DNA from: Candidatus Moraniibacteriota bacterium
GTDB lineage: Bacteria; Patescibacteriota; Minisyncoccia; Moranbacterales; UBA9337
DNA length: 64,000 nucleotides
Reading direction: 5' to 3'
Assembly: GCA_038331135.1 (NCBI GenBank)
Contig: JBBQOS010000001.1
Span: 9,140-73,139 of the forward strand
Shown: positions 5,881 to 29,472 of the stretch, piece by piece
Position numbering within the stretch: position 1 is the first letter of the stretch
Layout: every line of letters starts with the position of its first letter
The notes under the pieces: generated by a model
The model's database searches: none
What the model saw: only the letters and a program-made list of their open reading frames with translations
What the model was told of the DNA's origin: nothing
Translations under genes and position numbers: made by a program

Positions 5881-6570
5881 CTACATCCATCCTTTCGCCC
5901 TTAATCCTTCCTGTGCTGCTTCTCTTTGAGCTTCTTGCTTACTAGCGCCATTGCCCTGAGCCACTAATTCATCGCCAATGTAAACACCCACAGTGAAATT
6001 TTTATCATGATCTGGCCCCTCCTCTTTTAAAATTCGGTAAGAGGGCGTTAATTTAAAGTGTTCTTGAGAGTTTTCTTGAAAATAACTTTTGGGATCAAGG
6101 TATAATTTATTAGCAATCACATTCTCAATCTTAATTACTATATTTTCCAAAATAAATTTTTCCGCCACTGCATAACCCTGGTCCAAATAAATTGCTCCAA
6201 TAATAGCTTCCAAGGCATTAGCTAATAAATATTGTCGAGCTCGTCCCTTATCGCTAGACTCTCCTCGGCTCATTAGCACATATTCATCCACCTTTAATTC
6301 GGCAGAAATTTTAGCTAGCATTTCTCCATTTACCAAAGCCGCTCTCCAGCTGGTCATTTCACCCTCTTGATTATTTCTATAATTTTTAAACAAATAATCA
6401 GTTACCACCAACTCCAAAACCGCATCTCCCAAAAACTCCAACCTCTCATTGTGATTTAATTTATACTTTTTATTTTCATTTAGATAAGAGCGGTGGGTTA
6501 AAGCTTCCTGAATTAAATCCGGATTATTGAACTCTATTCCGATACTTTTAGCAAAACTACTTTTTGTCAT
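5881..6570 (-). CDS. rnc: ribonuclease III
   Basis: RNase III signature ERLEFLGDAVLEL plus C-terminal dsRBD. Confidence 0.9.
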   Translation of the reverse strand: MTKSSFAKSIGIEFNNPDLIQEALTHRSYLNENKKYKLNHNERLEFLGDAVLELVVTDYLFKNYRNNQEGEMTSWRAALVNGEMLAKISAELKVDEYVLMSRGESSDKGRARQYLLANALEAIIGAIYLDQGYAVAEKFILENIVIKIENVIANKLYLDPKSYFQENSQEHFKLTPSYRILKEEGPDHDKNFTVGVYIGDELVAQGNGASKQEAQREAAQEGLRAKGWM

Positions 6571-8915: not shown

Positions 8916-9734
8916 TTATTCACCCATCACCAATCTAAATTCAGCTTGAGCTGTTTTCATATCAGCTTTAAATTTATCTATTGCATTTTTAACTGAAAGC
9001 TTTCGATCATCTCTCAAGACTTGAATTTCTTCTTGGGATTTCTTATTTTCAATCACCTTGGATTTATATTCTTTACTGATTAATTTAATTTCTTCCTTTA
9101 AATTATTGGTGACTTTTCTCAAGTCATCTGAAGTAGCATCTTGGCTACAAGAATTTTTGGCCGTGGCTATGGCAGCGTTTGTTCTTTTTTTAAGCTCTAC
9201 CTTTAATGACTCCATAGATTTATCACGATTACTAATCGCACTATCAATTCCCCTATTCATTATTTCTCGAGCTTGGTCAATAGAAGTTCGTCTAACTTCA
9301 ATAGCTTTCTCAACAGCCACTTTAAATTTAATTACTGCAGACTTTTTAGTTGCATCAGCGCCTGCCTTGGTTTCCAATTTATTATAAAAATTATCCCTAT
9401 CCTCATCCCGCATATTCCTTCTATTGTCCAGTTCCGCATCTCGAGAAACTCTACTTTCCTCCATTTCTTTAACTCTGCTTTTTATCCTATCTTTTGATTG
9501 ATTCCCGCTATCTCCAATCTTAGCTTCTAATCTACTAGCTATACTGGCTATTCTATCGCAAATTTTTTCGTTTATTTTATCTTCTCGCTGGGATTTTCTA
9601 TCATCTTTTGTGGCGCTCAAATTTTTCATATTAGTTCCCACTGTCTCACTTTCATTTACTGCTCTAACATTATTAGCTAATCCAGCTAAAAATATTAAAG
9701 CTAACCAACTTATTATTTTTATGTTTCTTTTCAT
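8916..9734 (-). CDS. secreted coiled-coil/charged protein, hypothetical
   Basis: Signal peptide MKRNIKIISWLALIFLAGLANNVRA followed by K/E/R-rich low-complexity coiled coil. Confidence 0.55.
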   Translation of the reverse strand: MKRNIKIISWLALIFLAGLANNVRAVNESETVGTNMKNLSATKDDRKSQREDKINEKICDRIASIASRLEAKIGDSGNQSKDRIKSRVKEMEESRVSRDAELDNRRNMRDEDRDNFYNKLETKAGADATKKSAVIKFKVAVEKAIEVRRTSIDQAREIMNRGIDSAISNRDKSMESLKVELKKRTNAAIATAKNSCSQDATSDDLRKVTNNLKEEIKLISKEYKSKVIENKKSQEEIQVLRDDRKLSVKNAIDKFKADMKTAQAEFRLVMGE

Positions 9735-9766
9735 AGTTATTTAGATTTAAATGTAAAAAATTATTA

Positions 9767-10078
9767 TTAATAAACTTCATTTTCGATAGAATCAAAATCC
9801 GCACTTTCATCAAATTGTCCGTCATCCACCAATCCATCAGCCAAATCATCAGCATCTTCTTCAAAATCAACATCTGTTTGCATCAAGTCAGCTTTTTCTT
9901 GGTTGGAATTTTGAGTACCAGTTCCTTTTGCTGATTCTATCTTAGATTTAGCAATACCGTTGAGAGATTGGATATCGGCGTCGCCCTTGTTTGAAATATT
10001 TTTTGACATAACCAAAAAAATTCCGCACAAAACTACTGCTACGGCTATAAATACCCACAGATACATATTTTTCTTCAT
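9767..10078 (-). CDS. small membrane-anchored acidic protein, hypothetical
   Basis: N-terminal TM helix followed by a D/E-rich tail. Confidence 0.45.
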   Translation of the reverse strand: MKKNMYLWVFIAVAVVLCGIFLVMSKNISNKGDADIQSLNGIAKSKIESAKGTGTQNSNQEKADLMQTDVDFEEDADDLADGLVDDGQFDESADFDSIENEVY

Positions 10079-14529: not shown

Positions 14530-14873
14530 ATTTTTTTTATATTAAGATATTATTCTCCTCAATATTTATTAAAGCCCATTAAGTATAGCAACTACATTAA
14601 ATACCGCAATATTGACAAGGCTTTTATTTTATTGCATTGAAAAATATACTACTTCAAGCTCTAGCCAACGCCAAATTATGCCCATAATTAGCCAGTTTGA
14701 CACGTTTTTTTTCAAAATTATTATAATTTATTTTTAAAACTGTTGACAAAAAGCTTTAAATATGCAACTATTAATATAATCAGATCGGAACTGTAAGAAA
14801 AGCAAAGTCGAGTTTTATCAAACAGTCCATTAGATTTGAAAATTAATCAACAAGCTTTATCTTACAAAAAACG

Positions 14874-15074
14874 ATGAACAAAGGAAAAATTGCTCGTCTT
14901 ACTGATAAGGGATTTGGTTTTATATCACAAGATGGAGAAGAGAAAGATTTATTCTTTCATGCTTCTGAATTGCAAGGTGTAGAATTCAATGAACTTAAAG
15001 AAGGAGACGCAGTTACATTTGAAGTGAAAGAAGGTCCTAAGGGTCTTAACGCTACAAATGTTTCTCTAGCGTAA
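14874..15074 (+). CDS. csp: cold-shock protein (CspA family)
   Basis: RNP motifs KGFGFI and FFHAS. 66 aa. Long (~340 nt) 5' untranslated spacer upstream. Confidence 0.85.
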   Translation: MNKGKIARLTDKGFGFISQDGEEKDLFFHASELQGVEFNELKEGDAVTFEVKEGPKGLNATNVSLA

Positions 15075-15180
15075 TACAAACAAACTTAAAAACATCTCAA
15101 TTTATTGAGATGTTTTTTTGTTTTAACAACCTTACTCTTTCTTTATTAAATTGCTAAAATACTATTGTGTTAATGAGGAA

Positions 15181-16335
15181 TTATTTCATTCCATCAATAA
15201 CACTTAAAAACTTTTTGGCTGATTTTGTCCAAGAAAATTTTTGAAGTTGCTTGAGTCTGCTAATTGAAAAACTTTCCGCAAAGTCTTTATCTAACAAAAA
15301 TTCTCTCGAGGCCAAGGCAATTTCATCGGGGCGATTAGCATCTACTAGCACCCCACCAGTGCCCACGGTCTCAACTAAAGAAGAATTATTAGCCGCCACT
15401 ACTGGCACCCCGCATTTCATTGCTTCCAATGGTGGTATTCCAAATCCCTCAAAAAAAGAAGGGTACACAAACAGCGAGGCTAGATTATAAACATAGAGTT
15501 TATCTTCGTTTTCTATAAATTTTATCCATCGAATGTCTTTGCTATATTTAGAATTTTTTATACTTTTTTTAATTTTATCAGATTTCCAACCTGCCGAACC
15601 AGCAATAACCAGCTTATATTTATCCAAATATTTATTTTCCTCGCTTCTTAAGATTTCATAAGCCTTAATGAGTCCTATAATATTTTTTCTGGGCTCAAAT
15701 GTTCCTAAAAAAAGGATAAACTTAAAGGGAAGCTTATATTTCTCTTTCACTTCTAATAATTTTGGATCATTTCTATTCAGTCTTTCGAGATTATCCGAAA
15801 CACCATTGTAAATAACTTCTATTTTATCGGGCCTAACTTTATAGTAATGTAACAAATCATCCCTAGTTGATTTAGAAACAGCCAAAATCTTATCCGCCCG
15901 ATTGATTAATCTCTTTGGATTAATAAAAACATGCCACATACGGCGCTTGAGTGAAAAAGACTCTGGAAAATATTCAAAAGAAAGATCATGTATTGTTAAA
16001 ATTAACTTACTTTTTCGAGAAAGAGCCACAAAATTCAAGTTAGGCATAAAAAAGACATCCACACCTCCCAAAAGTTTGTCTATTTTAGGCCAATTCAAAT
16101 ACCACAACAACAAGTTTAATATCTTGTTGGGAAAATTAAAAGTTTTTATAGTTACATTTTTATATTTTCTAGCCCAATTTAGATCTGGGTTAGCAGTTTT
16201 CCAAGAATTCAAAAAAAGGACATAACTATTTGCTTTGTCTTCCTTGAAAATTTTATCCAAAAGATTAATACTATATTCCTCTACCCCGGTTCTCCTACCT
16301 CCAGATAGACATCGGATGTCTATACCTATTTTCAT
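15181..16335 (-). CDS. glycosyltransferase family 1 (GT4 clan, GT-B)
   Basis: EGFGIPPLEAMKCGVPVVA EX7E-type motif. Confidence 0.8.
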   Translation of the reverse strand: MKIGIDIRCLSGGRRTGVEEYSINLLDKIFKEDKANSYVLFLNSWKTANPDLNWARKYKNVTIKTFNFPNKILNLLLWYLNWPKIDKLLGGVDVFFMPNLNFVALSRKSKLILTIHDLSFEYFPESFSLKRRMWHVFINPKRLINRADKILAVSKSTRDDLLHYYKVRPDKIEVIYNGVSDNLERLNRNDPKLLEVKEKYKLPFKFILFLGTFEPRKNIIGLIKAYEILRSEENKYLDKYKLVIAGSAGWKSDKIKKSIKNSKYSKDIRWIKFIENEDKLYVYNLASLFVYPSFFEGFGIPPLEAMKCGVPVVAANNSSLVETVGTGGVLVDANRPDEIALASREFLLDKDFAESFSISRLKQLQKFSWTKSAKKFLSVIDGMK

Positions 16336-22610: not shown

Positions 22611-22733
22611 AATTAAGCCTAAATATAAAATATTCAGTAAATCTATCTATATTTCTTTCTATATTTCTTTCTATGTTTCTTTCCATGTTTCTGTTAGTGT
22701 CTCTTTTAATAGCCTCATTTAAAATTTATTTTT

Positions 22734-23262: not shown

Positions 23263-23334
23263 GGCGATCATAGTTCAGTGGTAGAACATCGGTTTGTGGT
23301 ACCGAGTATCAGGGTCCGATTCCCTGTGATCGCC
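23263..23334 (+). tRNA. tRNA-His (anticodon GUG) with encoded G-1
   Basis: Extra 5' G pairs with discriminator C. Anticodon loop UUGUGGU. T-arm CAGGG/CCCTG. Confidence 0.8.
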
Positions 23335-23428
23335 CCTTTGTAGATTTCAAATAAAAATTATTTAATTAAAAATAAGCTCTTGTGGTGAAATAGATATCAC
23401 ACTTGGCGGAGTTTATCCCGCTTAACGT

Positions 23429-23501
23429 GCGCCCATAGCTCAACGGATAGAGTGTCTGGCTTCGGACCAGAAGGTTCTAGGTTCGAGTCCTAGTGGGCGC
23501 A
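23429..23501 (+). tRNA. tRNA-Arg (anticodon UCG)
   Basis: Acceptor GCGCCCA/TGGGCGC. Anticodon loop CUUCGGA. T-loop GGTTCGAGTCC. Confidence 0.85.
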
Positions 23502-23504
23502 CAT

Positions 23505-23552
23505 TGTGCGGGAGACCAAGCGTTTCAGGTTCGATTCCTGGCAAGAGCACCA
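23505..23552 (+). pseudogene. tRNA 3'-half remnant (T-arm plus acceptor 3' strand plus encoded CCA), not matching neighbouring tRNAs
   Basis: TCAGGTTCGATTCCTGG-CAAGAGC-A-CCA with no complementary 5' acceptor strand upstream. The native tRNAs here lack encoded CCA. Confidence 0.55.
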
Positions 23553-23589
23553 ACAACGAACTATTTGAAAAAGGAAAGGGTGTTTTTCT

Positions 23590-23852
23590 TTCGAGGTTCT
23601 GCCCGTAAAGATATTCGGGCAGTGTGGCAGGGCGAAATGCGGACTCGGTTTTGCGAAGCTATTTTCTGGGGAAAGGATTTGGCAAAACCTCGGCTGATTT
23701 TTGGTGGTGGTTTCCCGCCCGCAGAAAAGGGTCTGGGGAATGAATGCGGGCGGGGCTTGTGTTAACTACAAAATCATGGTAGGGTAGCTTCAGAAGAAAT
23801 CCTTTGGATTTCTCGAAAATTGTACATTCACAAACTAAACAAGGAGACGACA
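23590..23852 (+). repeat. structured ~265-nt GC-rich leader upstream of trpS; copy 1 of an inverted duplicated leader
   Basis: Hairpins GCCCG...CGGGC, CCGCCCGC-(23 nt)-GCGGGCGGG and AGAAATCC-ttt-GGATTTCT, then SD AAGGAG and ATG. About 85-90% identical to the reverse complement of 28935-29195. Confidence 0.7.
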
Positions 23853-24845
23853 ATGGAAACAGTTCTATCAGGAATCCGCGCCACGGGGCGCCTACATTTT
23901 GGCAACTTTCTTGGAGCCGTGCAAAACTTCGTGAAGTTCCAACAACCCGGCAATACCTGCCTCTACTTCATCGCCGATTGGCACACACTGACAACACTCG
24001 AAAATCCAGAAGATCTTCGAGGTAATCTGGTTGAGATTGTGAAAGATTACATTGCCGCTGGTCTCGATCCAGAGCAATCAATCATTTACGCTCAGTCAAG
24101 TGTGCCGGAAATCTCCGAACTGTGTCTGTATCTTTCCATGATTCAGCCAATTGGTGAGCTTGAACGCGTTCCGACATTCAAAGATTTGATTCGTAAGAAT
24201 CCAGACAACGTGAATCTTGGGCTCGTGACCTATCCCGTTCTTATGGCGGCAGATATTCTCGGTCCTAAAGCGACACTCGTGCCGGTTGGCGAGGATCAGA
24301 TTCCAAATGTTGAAATGGCGCGCAATCTCGCGAACAGATTCAACAAACGTTTTGGAAACACCTTCGTCATCCCCGAGATGATGGCGCAAATGATAAAAGT
24401 GCCAGGGCTTGACGGCGCAAAGATGGGAAAATCGGAAGCGGACAACGCTATCGACATCAATGTCTCTATTGAAGCAATCCGCGACCAGTATCTGAAGAAG
24501 GGAATTACGGATCCACAACGTCTCCGAGTTACTGATCCCGGCGATCCATACAATCGTTGCCAGTCTGTGTACCCTGTGCACGAACTGGTGACGAATGGCG
24601 AGACAACAACTCGAGAGATTGCCAATCTCTGCATCTCGGCTCAAATCGGCTGTGTTGCCTGTAAGCATCGTTTGGTTGATGGCATCGCAAAGATTCTGGA
24701 ACCCTTTCAGGAAAAACGTGCCGGTCTCGTCAACCAAAATGATTACGTCAAAGATGTACTTCATGAGGGTGGCAAGAAAGCTCGCGTCAGAATCAAGGCA
24801 ACCACCGAGCTTGTTCGAGAGAGAATGGGCATTGTTCTCTATTAA
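23853..24845 (+). CDS. trpS: tryptophan--tRNA ligase (auxiliary, horizontally acquired copy)
   Basis: Class I aaRS: GNFLGA near the N-terminus, GEDQ motif (VPVGEDQIPNVEMARNLANRFN) and KMGKS. Start chosen at METVLSG, 7 nt downstream of AAGGAG. About 48% GC against a ~30% background. Confidence 0.85.
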   Translation: METVLSGIRATGRLHFGNFLGAVQNFVKFQQPGNTCLYFIADWHTLTTLENPEDLRGNLVEIVKDYIAAGLDPEQSIIYAQSSVPEISELCLYLSMIQPIGELERVPTFKDLIRKNPDNVNLGLVTYPVLMAADILGPKATLVPVGEDQIPNVEMARNLANRFNKRFGNTFVIPEMMAQMIKVPGLDGAKMGKSEADNAIDINVSIEAIRDQYLKKGITDPQRLRVTDPGDPYNRCQSVYPVHELVTNGETTTREIANLCISAQIGCVACKHRLVDGIAKILEPFQEKRAGLVNQNDYVKDVLHEGGKKARVRIKATTELVRERMGIVLY

Positions 24846-24862
24846 GATCGAGTATACTTAAT

Positions 24863-24903
24863 GGGCACCTAAAACCGCAAGATTTTAGGTGCCCATTTTT
24901 TAA
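24863..24903 (+). terminator. rho-independent terminator after trpS
   Basis: GGGCACCTAAAA-ccgcaaga-TTTTAGGTGCCC followed by ATTTTTT. Confidence 0.8.
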
Positions 24904-25004
24904 TTTGACAACGATAGCCTAACCATGATAAGCTTACTCATGGTTAGGTTGCTGTACATTTATAGATACTAAAACTCACATCTGGTTCCCTTGATTAATC
25001 AAGG

Positions 25005-25230
25005 GGTTGGGGCTAGATAGTTTCGCGATATACTATCCGAGACAAAGTGGTCTTTGCATAAGTGAAGACTCGGCATTCCTCCGTAATCATAGGAAAAACC
25101 GAAATCGGCTGAAAAGCATAGAGTCGGTATGAGTCCCGAGAGTAATCAAGGGAGAAGTAAGGTGGCACCGCGGAAATCCGCCCTTACGATATGAGCAATT
25201 TTGCTTGTATCGCAAGGGCGGTTTTTCATT
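25005..25230 (+). promoter_or_regulatory. T-box riboswitch leader (tRNA-sensing antiterminator) upstream of dehydrogenase/aminotransferase operon
   Basis: T-box core GAAGUAAGGUGGCACCGCGG (consensus AGGGUGGNACCGCGG) at 25155-25173. Overlapping terminator CCGCCCTTACGATA...TATCGCAAGGGCGG plus TTTTTC ends 26 nt before the ATG. The UGGC bulge implies a discriminator-G tRNA. Confidence 0.65.
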
Positions 25231-25255
25231 TATTAACTCTTAAAACAACATTACT

Positions 25256-26320
25256 ATGAGTAAAGACAATCACTGCTACAAAGAACCAAATATAGAAACA
25301 AATATGTTTGAGGTTCAACAAACAAATAAACATGAGAAATTGATTTTTGGATCAGACGCAAAGTCTGGTCTGAAAATTATTCTCGCCATTCATAATACTA
25401 CCTTAGGGCCAAGTACCGGTGGTACACGAATGGCACTCGTCCCAGAAAAAACAGCTATTGATGAAGCTCTCCGTCTTTCGTATGCAATGACATTTAAATG
25501 CGCGATTATGGATGAACCTTTCGGTGGTTCAAAAGCTGTTATTATTGGTGATCCATCAAAACCAAAATCAAAAGAATTTCTCCACGCTCTTGGTGATTTT
25601 ATTGAATCACTCGGCGGAGCATTCCTGACTGGTGTAGATATGGGTCTTTCGTTAGAGGATGCAAAAATTATCGGCGAGCGGACAAAATATATTTTTAACT
25701 CCCAAGGTTCTTCTGGTGTTACTACTGCCCATGGCGTTTTCAAGGGTATTAAGGAAACGGTCTCTTATGTGTTACATAAAAACAGACTAAAGGATGTACG
25801 TATCGCGGTCCAAGGACTTGGGGCTGTCGGCGGTACGCTTGTTGAACTACTCTTTGCTGAAGGTGCGAGGGTTTTTGTTTCAGATATTGATCCTAAAATG
25901 ACAGAGAAGTATAAAATGATGGCAACCGTTGTTGATAATGATACGATACACAGTATTGATTGTGATGTATTTGCGCCTTGTGCTGTTGGAGAAATTGTCA
26001 ATGATAAAAGCATCAAGGAATTTCGGTGTAAGATTATTGCTGGAGGTGCCAACAATCAATTAAAAGACGAAACCAAACATGCCAAGGAATTACACTCTAT
26101 GGGAATCCTTCATGCTCCAGATTTTGTAATTAATGGTGGTGGTGTATGCCATGGTATGTGTGAAGTAAAAGGAATTGATGTGTCCAACGCTCTTAAAAAG
26201 ACAGATATTATCCCAAGTATATTGCGTACCATTTATGATCGGTCAAAGCAAACAAATACACCACCGCTCCATATAGCCTATGAAATAGCCTATGAAAAAC
26301 TCAAAGTCACCAAAAAATAA
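25256..26320 (+). CDS. Glu/Leu/Phe/Val-family amino acid dehydrogenase (Leu/Phe/Trp dehydrogenase-like)
   Basis: AIHNTTLGPSTGGTRM and FGGSKAVIIGDP motifs. Rossmann GLGAVGG. Confidence 0.8.
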   Translation: MSKDNHCYKEPNIETNMFEVQQTNKHEKLIFGSDAKSGLKIILAIHNTTLGPSTGGTRMALVPEKTAIDEALRLSYAMTFKCAIMDEPFGGSKAVIIGDPSKPKSKEFLHALGDFIESLGGAFLTGVDMGLSLEDAKIIGERTKYIFNSQGSSGVTTAHGVFKGIKETVSYVLHKNRLKDVRIAVQGLGAVGGTLVELLFAEGARVFVSDIDPKMTEKYKMMATVVDNDTIHSIDCDVFAPCAVGEIVNDKSIKEFRCKIIAGGANNQLKDETKHAKELHSMGILHAPDFVINGGGVCHGMCEVKGIDVSNALKKTDIIPSILRTIYDRSKQTNTPPLHIAYEIAYEKLKVTKK

Positions 26321-27425
26321 TCCGATTTCAGATCGAGTTAAAAACATACAATACTCGGCAATCAGAAAAAGTTTTACCACCGGATCGAGTAAAAATATCA
26401 TAAATGCGACCATCGGTCGTCCTGATTTTGATGTGTCGAGTGAAGTCAAAGAACAAGCAAAATTACATATTGATCTCGGACATAATGCATATACGGAAAC
26501 AAAAGGTGTGTTGTCTCTACGACAAGCAATATCCGAATATTTACGAAAAAAGAATATCAGCCGCACCGCAGATGAAATCATTGTTACATCCGGTACAACC
26601 TCTGCAATTTTTATGGTGATATCCTCTCTCGTTAATCCCGATGATGAAGTGATTATTTTTGAACCATATTTCGTAGCGTATCCTGAAGTAATAAAAATGG
26701 TTGGCGGCAAATGCATCATTCTAAAAACGACTTCTGATTTTCACCCAGACATCGCGTTGTTAGAAAAAACTGTTACAAAAAAGACAAAATTGATAATTAT
26801 AAATAGTCCAAACAATCCTACCGGTGCGGTGTACTCGTCAGAAACAATAAATCATATTGTGCGTATTGCGAAGAAAGTAGGTGCGTACATTCTTTCGGAC
26901 GAAATTTATCACGATTTCATATATGGTGAGACTCCATATTATTCGCCCGCCGAAATATATAGCAAAGCGATAATCGTTGACGGTCTTTCAAAATCAAAAG
27001 GTATGTCCGGCTGGAGAATAGGGTTTGTGGCAGGTCCTAAGAATATTATTGACGCTGTTGAAAAATTGCAACAGTTTACTTCAGTGTGTGCTCCTGCCCC
27101 GCTCCAGCATGCTTCAATCTTAGCTTTTACTGACCCGCTCGCCCCAAGTTACCTAGAAAAATACAAACAGAAAAGAAATTTGCTTATTGAAGGAATCAAG
27201 AATGAATATCAGGTAATAATACCCACTGGAGCTTTTTACCTATTTTTAGAAACACCAATTTCTGCTGATAGATTTACAGCTATTTTGGCAAAAAAAGGAC
27301 TAGCCGTGGTACCGGGTAGTGCGTTTGGTAACTACAAAAACTTTATTAGAATTTCGTATGCAGTCAGTGATAAAGAGATTGCACAAATGATTAAAATACT
27401 AAAAGATGCTGTTAAAGAAAAATGA
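26292..27425 (+). CDS. class I/II PLP-dependent aminotransferase (aspartate/aromatic family)
   Basis: SPNNPTG, and SKSKGMSGWRIG with the PLP lysine. Overlaps the dehydrogenase by 29 nt, suggesting an operon. Confidence 0.8.
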   Translation: MKNSKSPKNNPISDRVKNIQYSAIRKSFTTGSSKNIINATIGRPDFDVSSEVKEQAKLHIDLGHNAYTETKGVLSLRQAISEYLRKKNISRTADEIIVTSGTTSAIFMVISSLVNPDDEVIIFEPYFVAYPEVIKMVGGKCIILKTTSDFHPDIALLEKTVTKKTKLIIINSPNNPTGAVYSSETINHIVRIAKKVGAYILSDEIYHDFIYGETPYYSPAEIYSKAIIVDGLSKSKGMSGWRIGFVAGPKNIIDAVEKLQQFTSVCAPAPLQHASILAFTDPLAPSYLEKYKQKRNLLIEGIKNEYQVIIPTGAFYLFLETPISADRFTAILAKKGLAVVPGSAFGNYKNFIRISYAVSDKEIAQMIKILKDAVKEK

Positions 27426-27472
27426 CGCCATACTCGAAAGTACAGCGTCATTAAGTTTTACTAGTAGTGCGT

Positions 27473-28435
27473 TCAAGAGATGATTCCCTTGATTGCATGG
27501 AGCGTATCATGTTGGCTCTGTGGAAGCACATTGCCAATCACGTTGTTGAGAACAGTCACGACACCTTGCAGTTTGACACCGATTGGCTCCACGATGAGCG
27601 CCATACCCTTGGCAAAATACTTGGTGCTGATCAAAAATTTCTCAGGACCAAAAACATTTTGAACAAGTTTATGAATTCCGTTCGGCGTATACCAATGAGA
27701 CAGGAAGAATCCATCTCTACCTTGTGTCTGCCCAACAATCTGAAGGGCCGAGATAGATGGAATTGAGCCACTGGAAACCTGCCTTTGTATTGCCGAAAGA
27801 GAATCCCTCACAGCATTCTTCGTGGTTTCCTCGTCGAAAGTCGAGACCTTGGCTCGAACACCTATCGATAGGAGCTCTCTCTTTACCGAGAATCCTATCC
27901 AATCGAACAAGAATTCTTCGCCGAGAATCCGACCGTTCCGAAGATACTCGTCGTATCCACAGAACGGATATCCGGATTCCGGTTCAGCTTTGAAGAAGCT
28001 CTGACAGTTGTAGACCCCTATAATGAGGCGCCGGGGCTTACTCGCGATCTGCTGGCAAATGACGGAAATCTCACCCGGCAAGAATGTCATCTCCACACCA
28101 TGGTCGATGAACGGCTTGAGGATGGAAGACCTTGCCCGTTCGACTTGTTTAGGTGCAAGGTCGTTGAATACAACCTTGGAAACATACACCCCTATTCGGG
28201 AGAACATGTCCTCAAGAATCACCTTTGGATCACGACAACCGACGGCTCCGCCGAGTGTGATGATATCTTCGCAATCGATTTCTCGATACGCCGCAAGAGT
28301 AGCATCCAATTCCCCTTGGTTATCCGTCGTCATCTCTTCCGTTTCGTACGTACTGGACTGAGCGTCCCAGAAAGCCTTTTGGCCTTCGACTGTGAGGTTT
28401 GGCTTTTGCCAACCATCTTCTCTTGACTTACTCAT
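27473..28435 (-). CDS. hypothetical protein, possible Rossmann/SAM-methyltransferase-like fold
   Basis: IITLGGAVG glycine-rich loop followed by an acidic residue and a VVFNDL-like motif (weak). Overlaps the ybaK-like gene by 8 nt, suggesting an operon. GC about 50%. Confidence 0.45.
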   Translation of the reverse strand: MSKSREDGWQKPNLTVEGQKAFWDAQSSTYETEEMTTDNQGELDATLAAYREIDCEDIITLGGAVGCRDPKVILEDMFSRIGVYVSKVVFNDLAPKQVERARSSILKPFIDHGVEMTFLPGEISVICQQIASKPRRLIIGVYNCQSFFKAEPESGYPFCGYDEYLRNGRILGEEFLFDWIGFSVKRELLSIGVRAKVSTFDEETTKNAVRDSLSAIQRQVSSGSIPSISALQIVGQTQGRDGFFLSHWYTPNGIHKLVQNVFGPEKFLISTKYFAKGMALIVEPIGVKLQGVVTVLNNVIGNVLPQSQHDTLHAIKGIIS

Positions 28436-28934
28436 TTGAATCTCCTTTGGTTTGAGTGTTTGATGTGGTTTGAGAGATATCTGCGATTATTGCCCCAATG
28501 GCTTTCACCATTTCCTCGGGATCAATCACAATTGTTTTCCGCGGATCACTAGATCCGCAGTAAACCGTTCGTTGTCTGAGTAGCACCGCGTCCACAATGA
28601 TATTCTGAAAGAACTCATGAAAGGGACACATATCCCCCGAGTTCAATCCAAGTTTTTTGGTGATTTCTGGTCCAGCGAACTTCACTGTTTTTTCCGATAC
28701 GCCGAGAATAGCAGCGACCTTTGAGAAGTCGACTCTATTCATGCCGGGCAGGATAGTGGCAATCAAACCTATATCCTTTTGAGATAAGAGCAAGGTCTTT
28801 GCCATCAAGTCAGTGGATATATCCAAAGTGCGAACAACATCACCAATCGTAATGACAGGATCATGCTCAATCACTCTCGGCGAATACCCAGAACTCTTAA
28901 GCTTCTGTATGATTTTTTCTGTCTGTGTTTCCAT
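28428..28934 (-). CDS. YbaK/ProX-family aminoacyl-tRNA trans-editing deacylase
   Basis: AKTLLL (conserved Lys), VDFSKVAAILGV and SGDMCPF motifs align with YbaK. Start chosen at METQTEK after AAGGAG. The track ORF extends to 28967 via the shared leader. Confidence 0.7.
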   Translation of the reverse strand: METQTEKIIQKLKSSGYSPRVIEHDPVITIGDVVRTLDISTDLMAKTLLLSQKDIGLIATILPGMNRVDFSKVAAILGVSEKTVKFAGPEITKKLGLNSGDMCPFHEFFQNIIVDAVLLRQRTVYCGSSDPRKTIVIDPEEMVKAIGAIIADISQTTSNTQTKGDSNE

Positions 28935-29195
28935 TATCGTCTCCTTGTTTAGTTTGTGAATGTACAATTTTCGAGAAATCCAAAGGATTTCTTCTGAATC
29001 TACCCTACCATGATTTTGTAGTTAACACAAGCCCCGCCCGCATCCATCCCCCAGACCCCTTTCTGCGGGCGGACAAAATGCAAAAAACAAAAGTCAGTCG
29101 AGGTTTTGCGAATCCTTCCCCCAGAAAATAGTTTCGCAAAACTGAGTCCGAATTGCATTTGCACTCCGCCTGTCCGAATATTTTTTCGGGCAGAC
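28935..29195 (-). repeat. structured leader copy 2 (inverted orientation), upstream of ybaK-like gene
   Basis: Reverse complement matches 23590-23852, including identical CCGCCCGC/GCGGGCGGG and AGAAATCC/GGATTTCT hairpins, SD and ATGGAAAC. Diverges in the GGTGGTGG segment. Confidence 0.7.
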
Positions 29196-29472
29196 GGAGT
29201 GCGTATGTGTTCCCCCGCACTTCTGCTTCAGCTGAAGCACCACGCTTCGCGTAGTGGCGCTTCAGCGCGCGGGGGACGCTTTACATTACAGATTTTGAAA
29301 ATAGGTTCTAACTTGGTACAATAAACGCACCTATTACCCCCCCCATGGCAAAAAAACACCATCAATGTGGTGCTTTTTTGTTTATAAAATATTTTATGTC
29401 TTCTGGCGATGCAGAAATATTATCTCAAAAAATTTATCTTTAGCAATAACCCATAAAATATTTTATTATATT

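Follow-up and report, generated by a model that had tools for sequence, protein, structure and literature searches.

The subject of this analysis is an island of 5.8 kb, extending from ~23,560 to 29,340 in a 64,000-nucleotide stretch of DNA of Candidatus Moraniibacteriota bacterium (assembly GCA_038331135.1, contig JBBQOS010000001.1, positions 9,140 to 73,139), which as a whole is referred to as the window and from whose first letter positions are counted. The island comprises three transcription units. The first is trpS (23853..24845, + strand), which codes for a bacterial-type tryptophan--tRNA ligase (TrpRS) and is followed by a terminator at 24860-24897. The second, or middle operon (25256..27425, +), combines the genes of a ScyB-like (tryptophan dehydrogenase-like) ELFV dehydrogenase (25256-26320, +) and a class I/II aminotransferase (26292-27425, +) and is closed by a bidirectional terminator (27421-27452). 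The third, or partner unit, lies on the other strand (27473..28934, -) and contains ybaK (28934-28428, -), for a YbaK-like aminoacyl-tRNA editing protein, and a gene for a 320-amino-acid protein (28435-27473, -). Each end of the island carries one arm of an inverted repeat of about 270 nt, of which the left arm (23598..23861, +) leads into trpS and the right arm (28926..29194, -) into ybaK. A first-pass annotation of the window had taken this repeat for a single leader RNA of the attenuator or riboswitch type. The explanation favored here, which we regard as fairly probable, is that the repeat is a composite of two separable modules, partly homogenized by recombination between the ends of a horizontally acquired, tryptophan-related island: the inner ~105 nt would constitute an expression cassette that provides trpS and the partner unit with the same promoter and leader, and the outer ~165 nt would be the 3' portion of an independent structured element, named X.

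The repeat itself is evident from pairwise alignment. Comparison of 23598-23861 (+) with 29194-28926 (-) yields 232 identical columns out of 270 (85.9%, with 7 gap columns), and on both sides the identity outside the repeat drops at once to 29-32%. The near-identical inverted stretches described in the first-pass annotation are therefore present, they do bound the island, and their similarity spans the whole 270 columns. The identity amounts to 96.6% over the inner 147 nt and to 73% over the outer ~120 nt. A repeat finder retrieves arms 23715-23861 / 28926-29072 (147 nt, 97% complementary) and two extra collinear pieces at 23636-23686 / 29104-29154 (86%) and 23679-23703 / 29088-29112 (88%), and a 40-mer taken from the repeat has exactly two occurrences in the window and none in 100 shuffles. 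The inner ends of the repeat lie 8-9 bases inside the two convergent genes, trpS and the YbaK-like gene, both of which had been called correctly. As annotated, the match covers a 9-bp GC stem (23714-23722 / 23746-23754) with a 23-nt loop, the AGAAATCC/GGATTTCT hairpin, the Shine-Dalgarno (SD) sequence AAGGAG and the start ATGGAAAC (23853-23860). The two patches in which divergence had been said to concentrate are likewise real. The first (~23622-23640) would be the 3' strand of the closing helix of X, which differs between two X variants. The second, the GGTGGTGG linker at ~23703-23712 with the sequence GGUGGUGG, had been seen as a feature of the trpS copy; it is missing from the trpS copies of two relatives (L009 and L011) and a variant, GGUGACGG, is found on the ybaK side of a sister strain (L049), so that it is a linker of variable length and not a trpS-specific feature.

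The composite nature of the repeat emerges from comparison with relatives, for which contigs encoding a TrpRS 86-92% identical to that of the window were used together with contigs holding relatives of YbaK (labelled L001, L002, etc.). A nhmmer profile of the inner ~105 nt gave matches in the window and in 20 loci, which represent about 11 distinct islands. The core cassette precedes trpS and, in inverted orientation, the other inward-facing unit in the window, L001, L005, L009, L011 and L042, and a cassette before trpS and the partner unit is present in at least 9 related Parcubacteria contigs. This partner unit is ybaK in some islands and a chorismate-mutase (CM)/methyltransferase fusion gene in others. 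In L040 and L044 three copies are found, located before trpS, ybaK (in direct orientation) and the CM-methyltransferase gene, and a diverged cassette without trpS precedes a 60%-identical ybaK homologue in L045, in a type IV secretion system (T4SS) context. The common upstream region and start of the two convergent units, which the first-pass annotation had noticed, are thus kept in relatives and do not reflect a one-off duplication. The extent of the repeat differs in every genome (270, 97, 80, at least 116 and 426 nt, the value of at least 116 nt being that of L009, in which a contig end cuts the repeat, and L042 being excluded from these lengths), and copies of the same genome are 81% to 100% identical. 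What all copies in the relatives have in common is the inner ~105 nt alone, whereas the outer part is truncated, decayed, inverted or absent in various of them. Moreover, three of the four hairpins that had been described lie upstream of the likely transcription start, as part of X. The earlier interpretation is hence partly supported: the sharing is functional and conserved, as had been proposed, but a single attenuator- or riboswitch-type leader of 270 nt is not supported.

The two modules also occur apart from each other. L001, L005 and L040 have the core but not X, and at 3093-2676 in L009 X stands by itself, with no core. L005 additionally carries two inverted genes of the NUDIX family, each of 150 amino acids, just outside its two cassette copies (9443-9895, +, and 14863-15315, -), between which no long DNA repeat was detected at the settings used. 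With nhmmer no cassette copy was found at TrpRS relatives of 81% identity or below, and a strict cassette pattern, run against 185,579 species genomes, matched the L001 genome only; the cassette is therefore confined to a small clade. The L001 genome (GCA_964451495.1, contig CAYVHS010000001.1) is a metagenome-assembled genome labelled 'uncultured Bdellovibrionales'. As its TrpRS is 91% identical to that of the window and the named relatives are Parcubacteria, this label may be a mis-assignment.

The cassette consists of a promoter-like pair of boxes, an 8-9 bp hairpin, CAUUCACAAAC, AAGGAG and ATGGAAAC, in this order. The trpS copy (23756..23861, +), delimited by profile matches in the window and relatives, alignment and hairpin covariation, contains a -35-like TTGTGT (23757-23762), the TG of an extended -10 (23777-23778), a -10-like TAGGGT (23780-23785), the hairpin AGAAATCC-TTT-GGATTTCT (23795-23813), the motif CATTCACAAAC (23825-23835), the SD sequence (23841-23846) and the ATG at 23853. 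The ybaK copy (28926..29031, -), recovered by the repeat finder and by profile matches, is its mirror image, with the -35 at 29030-29025, the -10 at 29007-29002, the hairpin at 28992-28974, the SD sequence at 28946-28941 and the ATG at 28934. In an alignment of 19 copies conservation sets in at CTTG, and the TT of CTTG, T-G-n-T-A, the hairpin, CATTCACAA, AGGA and ATG are near-invariant, while the spacer between the boxes is variable in sequence and 17 nt long with zero indels. The arrangement expected of an extended -10 promoter, i.e., CTTGyrT, 17 nt without indels and TGnTAnnn, is found in 18 of the 19 copies. On account of this conservation pattern, and of the CM gene of L001, which has only ~150 nt to its divergent neighbor, the core is interpreted as a putative sigma-70-like promoter with an extended -10 (CTTGTGT, 17 nt, TGgTAGGGT) followed by a 5' untranslated region (UTR) of ~60 nt. 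A canonical promoter, TTGACA-N18-TGaTAAGCT (24905-24934, +), precedes the middle operon, with an equivalent in L009, which shows that these islands make use of the TGnTA signature. Transcription from the cassette would begin a few bases before the hairpin, which sets in 9-10 nt past the -10-like box, and the hairpin would consequently occupy the very 5' end of the mRNA, followed by the unstructured C/A-rich stretch CAUUCACAAAC, the strong SD sequence AAGGAG and ATG-GAA-AC. Pairing at the RNA level of the -35-like box with CACAA was considered and rejected, as there is no covariation between the two.

The hairpin is maintained by compensatory change. Across the 19 copies a mean of 7.4 of its 9 positions form standard pairs, compared with 4.8 (maximum 5.5) when the 3' arms are shuffled. 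The changes convert C-G to U-A or U.G and A-U to G.U or G-C, and the L002 hairpin has three compensatory pairs. Its loops, of 3, 4 or 5 nt, are unrelated in sequence, and the copy before the CM gene of L040 has a wholly different stem at this position. Because the spacing varies and G.U intermediates occur, an RNA hairpin is favored over a protein-bound DNA palindrome. The latter alternative would make AGAAATCC-N3-5-GGATTTCT the operator of a dimeric, e.g., Trp-responsive, repressor that co-regulates the cassette-bearing units. Its location, about +1 to +20 from the inferred start, is a classical operator position, the sequence of the half-sites is strongly conserved, a Trp_repressor-family gene lies 10 kb upstream in L001, and identical operators would account for selection for homogenized copies. 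However, in addition to the varying distance between half-sites, several copies pair only via G.T, which breaks the symmetry of the DNA and keeps the RNA pair, the stem before the CM gene of L040 is an altogether different one, and tblastn detects no TrpR homologue in the 64-kb window or the other loci, all of which makes an operator quite unlikely. A separate near-palindrome centred on GTTAAC in the promoter spacer of the window, which resembles half of the E. coli trp operator, was rejected as a TrpR operator, since it is not conserved in L005, L009 and L011 and the window has no TrpR homologue. The most likely function of the cassette hairpin, judged from its predicted location and compensated stem, is that of a 5'-terminal mRNA stabilizer, which would protect the transcripts from 5'-end-dependent decay; binding by some regulator is a less likely function.

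The outer ~165 nt of the repeat is the 3' part of X, a separate structured element of ~330-390 nt. In the window the trpS-side copy (23565..23755, +), recognized by comparison with L009, L011 and L033, is 5'-truncated, its 5' half being replaced by tRNA-region DNA. What is left contains a CTGCCCG/CGGGCAG hairpin, a GGTTTTGC/GCAAAACC hairpin, the variable linker with GGTGGTGG and a terminal GC hairpin with a conserved GGGUCUGGGGAAUGAAU loop (23714-23754). The ybaK-side copy (29032..29337, -) retains the 5' boundary motif TATTGTACCAAG..ACCTATTTTCAAAAT and a closing helix GCACTCCG/CGGAGTGC, and its long internal hairpin is deleted. X lies upstream of the core in L009 (7526-7909), at both ends of L011 (12734-12356 and 7585-7908), in L033 (2-375) and, more distantly related, in L002. 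In the sister-strain contig L049, 97.5% identical over ybaK, a complete X (about 300-780) precedes ybaK in a flank unlike that of the window. Of X, L041 has a decayed copy, L008 only the final ~12 nt and L042 an inverted fragment, while L001, L005 and L040 have none. The stand-alone copy of L009 (-) has as neighbors a glycosyltransferase gene in convergent and a VKOR gene in divergent orientation, and terminates in a 12-bp hairpin followed by a U tract.

X is characterized by a conserved 5' motif, TATTnTACCAAA(N6-7)ACCTATTTyCAAAA, and by two loops that display YUGGGGRA; peripheral hairpins have been gained and lost between close strains. The fold of X is considerably more stable than that of shuffled sequences (z = -7.7; z = -6.5 for the ybaK-side copy of the window), although the antisense strand is equally stable. 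In an alignment of five sequences, 85.6% of cells are paired, against 45-55% with slid partners, and 20 pairs are changed on both sides, against 5-11 with slid partners. The closing helix GCCCCGCCAC/GUGGCGGGGC is changed to GCACUCCG/CGGAGUGC in the window and L049 copies, and the loop of the terminal hairpin (GGGGUYUGGGGA..) is kept even in the stand-alone copy, the stem of which is wholly changed. Searches with Rfam 15 covariance models returned only chance-level matches of the miRNA type, and no match to X was found in phage or plasmid collections (blastn) or in IMG/VR (pattern scan of viral contigs). Pairing of X with the 5' UTR of the cassette was rejected, since RNAduplex energies in five genome pairs are no better than those with shuffled UTRs.

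The strong structure and covariation of X raise the alternative that X and the core together form one sensing leader of ~450 nt, with its promoter at the 5' boundary motif of X, in which a tryptophan-related signal, be it tRNA-Trp, Trp or a protein, would decide whether transcription passes the GC hairpin into trpS and ybaK. Indeed, in the window, L002, L009, L011 and L033 X immediately precedes trpS, with a GC hairpin as its last part before the gene, and the island is tryptophan-related. However, X is truncated, deleted, decayed, inverted or absent in various copies while the core and the genes persist, and the full-length X of L009 stands alone and ends in a U-tract terminator of its own. 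The GC hairpin has a conserved loop, which is unusual for a terminator, and its trpS-side copies have no U tract; X is separated from the gene by a promoter-like box pair; conservation extends neither to an alternative antiterminator pairing nor to GGUGGUGG; and the repeat of the window folded as one unit is not unusually stable (z = -1.3). A long sensing leader is for these reasons unlikely. On the favored reading, the hairpins of X are unrelated to the cassette and lie by chance within the conversion tract, and the terminal GC hairpin, which abuts the -35 box, probably blocks incoming transcription. A related proposal, which can be put forward only tentatively and is rather doubtful, is that X represents an undescribed class of structured non-coding RNA of ~330-390 nt in Parcubacteria, characterized by its 5' boundary motif and a GC-rich closing helix around a multi-hairpin junction, and occurring both stand-alone and, pointing inward, at the borders of mobile tryptophan-starvation islands. 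If so, it may serve to insulate the island from host transcription or act in trans, e.g., as a protein sponge or in island recombination, and the "leader" of the first-pass annotation would be the first sighting of that RNA.

Several observations weigh against the explanation preferred here. The core promoter is missed by a simple sigma-70 consensus scan, its two hexamers are weak (TTGTGT/TTGCAT and TAGGGT/TATGAA) and several copies do not have the final T of the -10. The start of transcription, and hence the 5'-terminal position of the hairpin, is placed by inference, and some of the copies in L001, L005 and L040 lie downstream of a co-directional gene, from which read-through is possible. 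X is kept upstream of trpS in at least 5 contigs and may contribute to trpS expression. Finally, the 5' arm of the cassette hairpin, GAAGAAAUCC, is more conserved in sequence than a purely structural stabilizer requires, and because of this very conservation a specific hairpin-binding partner is conceivable.

The similarity of the two ends within each genome is best accounted for by concerted evolution. Paralogous cassette copies are mutually nearest in the window (98%), in L001 (89%) and for the trpS/ybaK pair of L040 (77%), and this relation holds only for the trpS-side copy in L005 (74%) and L042 (57%). In L009 and in L011 the two copies are 100% identical, whereas orthologous copies of different genomes share 50-85% identity. 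In L011 the identical tract even enters the CM gene, in which codon 3, AAG/AAA (Lys), has become ACA (Thr), the codon of trpS. That copies of the same genome are the closest relatives indicates homogenization by gene conversion between the inverted repeats, which would thereby produce the 97% inner and 73% outer tracts of the window repeat.

Alternatively, the repeats could be the terminal inverted repeats of a transposon-like element or recombinase-mobilized cassette, their conservation reflecting mobility. The island is indeed foreign in composition and adjoins tRNA genes, its genomic context differs among relatives (the window shares its flank with none of the compared loci, including the sister contig L049), the surroundings of the ybaK pair in L045 are those of a T4SS, and L040/L044 have a large serine recombinase and RelB/ParE beside the island and L041 an rve integrase inside it. 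Nevertheless, the geometry is the opposite of that of transposon ends, because the outer ends vary (80 to 426 nt) and the inner ends are fixed at the start codon. In addition, the cassette carries an SD sequence and start codon, L040 has three cassettes, one of them direct and internal to the island, and the island of the window encodes no transposase or recombinase. Terminal repeats of this kind are thus very unlikely. An invertible segment of the Hin/Gin/Fim type was rejected as well, since no recombinase gene was found between the repeats or in the six adjacent open reading frames tested, and promoter switching by inversion is unsupported because the promoter-like boxes lie inside each repeat, so that inversion would not rewire expression.

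On the favored reading, the tryptophan supply is sensed not in the trpS and ybaK leaders but by a T-box before the middle operon. The putative T-box leader (24905..25226, +), which lies in a 360-nt gap, is recognized by an RF00230 match, by its presence at the same position in four relatives and by a consensus fold. The match, at 25027-25188, scores 27.7 bits (E=1.9e-4) and is sub-threshold with respect to the gathering score of 93, because Stem I is short. The leader contains a Stem I with a UUGGG bulge and the motif AAGGUGGCACCGCGG, invariant in 7 loci, and ends in a long terminator (25178-25221, +) followed by a U run (TTTTT). Sub-threshold matches occur before the middle operon, whatever its cargo, in L009 (9289-9453), L011 (9193-9353), L001 (11108-11335) and L040 (8459-8675, -). 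Seven such leaders are 75% identical, and their consensus fold places the UUGGG bulge at the 3' side of the internal loop of Stem I, an arrangement that would fit a UGG (Trp) specifier with a purine after it. The element at 25027-25188 is thus apparently a divergent, Trp-specific T-box, as far as can be predicted from its sequence and fold. In this scheme, the metabolic operon of the island would be switched by a tRNA-Trp T-box, and TrpRS and the partner genes would be expressed from the common cassette.

None of the leader types considered was recognized in the trpS and ybaK upstream regions. The T-box covariance model, which in the same search finds 25027-25188, has no match at E<=10 in 23400-23900 and 28880-29400, and no other Rfam family matches the two leaders at that threshold either. 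The conserved T-box sequence (..GGUGGNACCGCG..) is not found in these leaders as an antiterminator bulge, the conserved core has no Stem I or specifier loop, and the helices of X are unlike Stem I; a T-box in the two leaders was therefore rejected, as there is no covariance-model match and the motif is not conserved. Leader-peptide attenuation was discarded because the leaders have no conserved short open reading frame, and those present (ATG GTA GGG TAG in the window, one of 12 codons in L001) are devoid of Trp codons. No riboswitch aptamer is apparent between the boxes and the SD sequence, where a single 8-9 bp hairpin of variable loop and a single-stranded motif are all that the copies have in common. 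Neither TRAP-type (G/U)AG repeats nor a ThrRS-type operator mimicking an anticodon was retained, as repeats of this kind were not seen and the loops of the hairpins lack conservation. A literature search on T-boxes or structured RNAs in the candidate phyla radiation (CPR)/Patescibacteria yielded nothing relevant.

The island differs from its surroundings. Its GC content is 41-46% (43% overall), compared with 32-33% in the flanks and ~32% in the genome of the window, and in relatives it is 40-49% whatever the GC content of the host. The TrpRS has its best relatives among Parcubacteria (Liptonbacteria, Azambacteria, Staskawiczbacteria and others). To the right the island is bordered by the terminator of a pilus operon and to the left by a tRNA cluster with tRNA-His (23264-23336, +) and tRNA-Arg(TCG) (23429-23502, +), the latter on a 20-bp extended helix. 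The tRNA-Arg gene is enclosed by a tRNA-like sequence (23377-23552, +). In this sequence GCTCTTG and CAAGAGC pair as the acceptor stem, with A-CCA behind it, CTTGG and CCAAG pair as the anticodon stem, and both a D arm and a T arm (TCAGG-TTCGATT-CCTGG) can be recognized; the anticodon loop is split by ~100 nt holding the complete tRNA-Arg gene. This outer sequence is not called by ARAGORN with or without intron search, and may represent a tRNA that has been disrupted, a nested arrangement or an intron of unusual type. Further left, the AT-rich spacer beside the tRNA cluster has a short tandem array of CTTTCTATATTT-like units with a 12-nt period (22621-22703).

In the TrpRS, dehydrogenase, aminotransferase and YbaK proteins only 2 of 1229 residues are Trp (1, 0, 1 and 0, respectively), while ~11 would be expected from the background of 0.9% in the other window genes. 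A second TrpRS-like gene, 34-52% identical, lies near the island trpS in L005 (20086-20985), L008 (7022-6045, -), L016 (1593-2573) and L041 (3784-2846, -), and in these four loci the island TrpRS is therefore an auxiliary copy; the 64-kb window has a single trpS. Extra archaeal-type TrpRS genes have been described in CPR bacteria (Mukai et al., 2017; PMC5370408), which belong to a clade different from that of this bacterial-type TrpRS. Directly 3' of the island trpS a tRNA-Trp(CCA) gene is found in L008 (9017-9092) and L009 (9030-9105), where the window has only the terminator, and L009 has a second tRNA-Trp at 5907-5979. The 320-amino-acid protein of the partner unit has 89 homologues in the database searched, the few named ones all from CPR/Parcubacteria, and its gene always adjoins a YbaK-like gene. 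It has no sequence match in Pfam, NCBIfam or PDB. Its predicted fold, of high confidence (pLDDT 91.5), is nearest, though weakly (Foldseek E 1.5e-4, TM 0.39), to EgtD-type amino-acid N-methyltransferases, and the structural matches of this type include a Trp-bound variant. From these features the island looks like a horizontally mobile tryptophan-limitation module.

Comparison with known systems helps to place the two modules. With the T-box leaders (RF00230) that precede trpS in Firmicutes, the island shares an aminoacyl-tRNA synthetase gene, a long hairpin-rich upstream region and a cluster tied to the cognate amino acid. It differs from them in that the trpS and ybaK regions have no T-box match, no specifier loop and no conserved terminator/antiterminator, and in that their conserved transcribed part is one short hairpin. 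Another parallel is offered by the 5'-terminal stem-loops that stabilize mRNAs, as in the E. coli ompA 5' UTR and the B. subtilis aprE and ermC leaders. Like these, the cassette would combine a short hairpin near the inferred 5' end, with a free loop and a compensated stem, with an unstructured spacer and a strong SD sequence, but its 5' arm is unusually conserved and its host is an uncultivated member of the Parcubacteria. Gene conversion between duplicates in inverted orientation is exemplified by tufA/tufB in Salmonella and by plastid inverted repeats. As in such cases, inverted copies of the same genome are more similar than orthologues and the identical tract varies in length, whereas the unit converted here is a non-coding promoter/5' UTR cassette plus variable upstream DNA, which ends at the start codons of unrelated genes. 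The island also resembles tRNA-adjacent genomic islands in its foreign GC content, its tRNA-cluster border, its variable cargo and the recombinase or toxin-antitoxin genes of some relatives, yet the window copy has no integrase, no direct-repeat att sites were identified, and its borders are inverted expression cassettes.

To our knowledge, almost nothing is known of gene expression signals in CPR/Patescibacteria, and a promoter/5' UTR cassette with comparative support would provide a concrete case in this group that can be tested in reporters. It would also illustrate clearly how regulatory DNA at the two ends of a mobile island evolves in concert. For X and for short-Stem-I T-boxes in Parcubacteria there is no above-threshold Rfam match, and no report was found in the literature searched. 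In all, TrpRS (with a second copy in several relatives), a T-box with a predicted UGG specifier, a Trp-dehydrogenase-like enzyme, an aminotransferase, an editing-domain protein and the Trp-poor composition of the encoded proteins may together represent a coherent tryptophan-limitation module in organisms that are thought to depend on a host for their amino acids.

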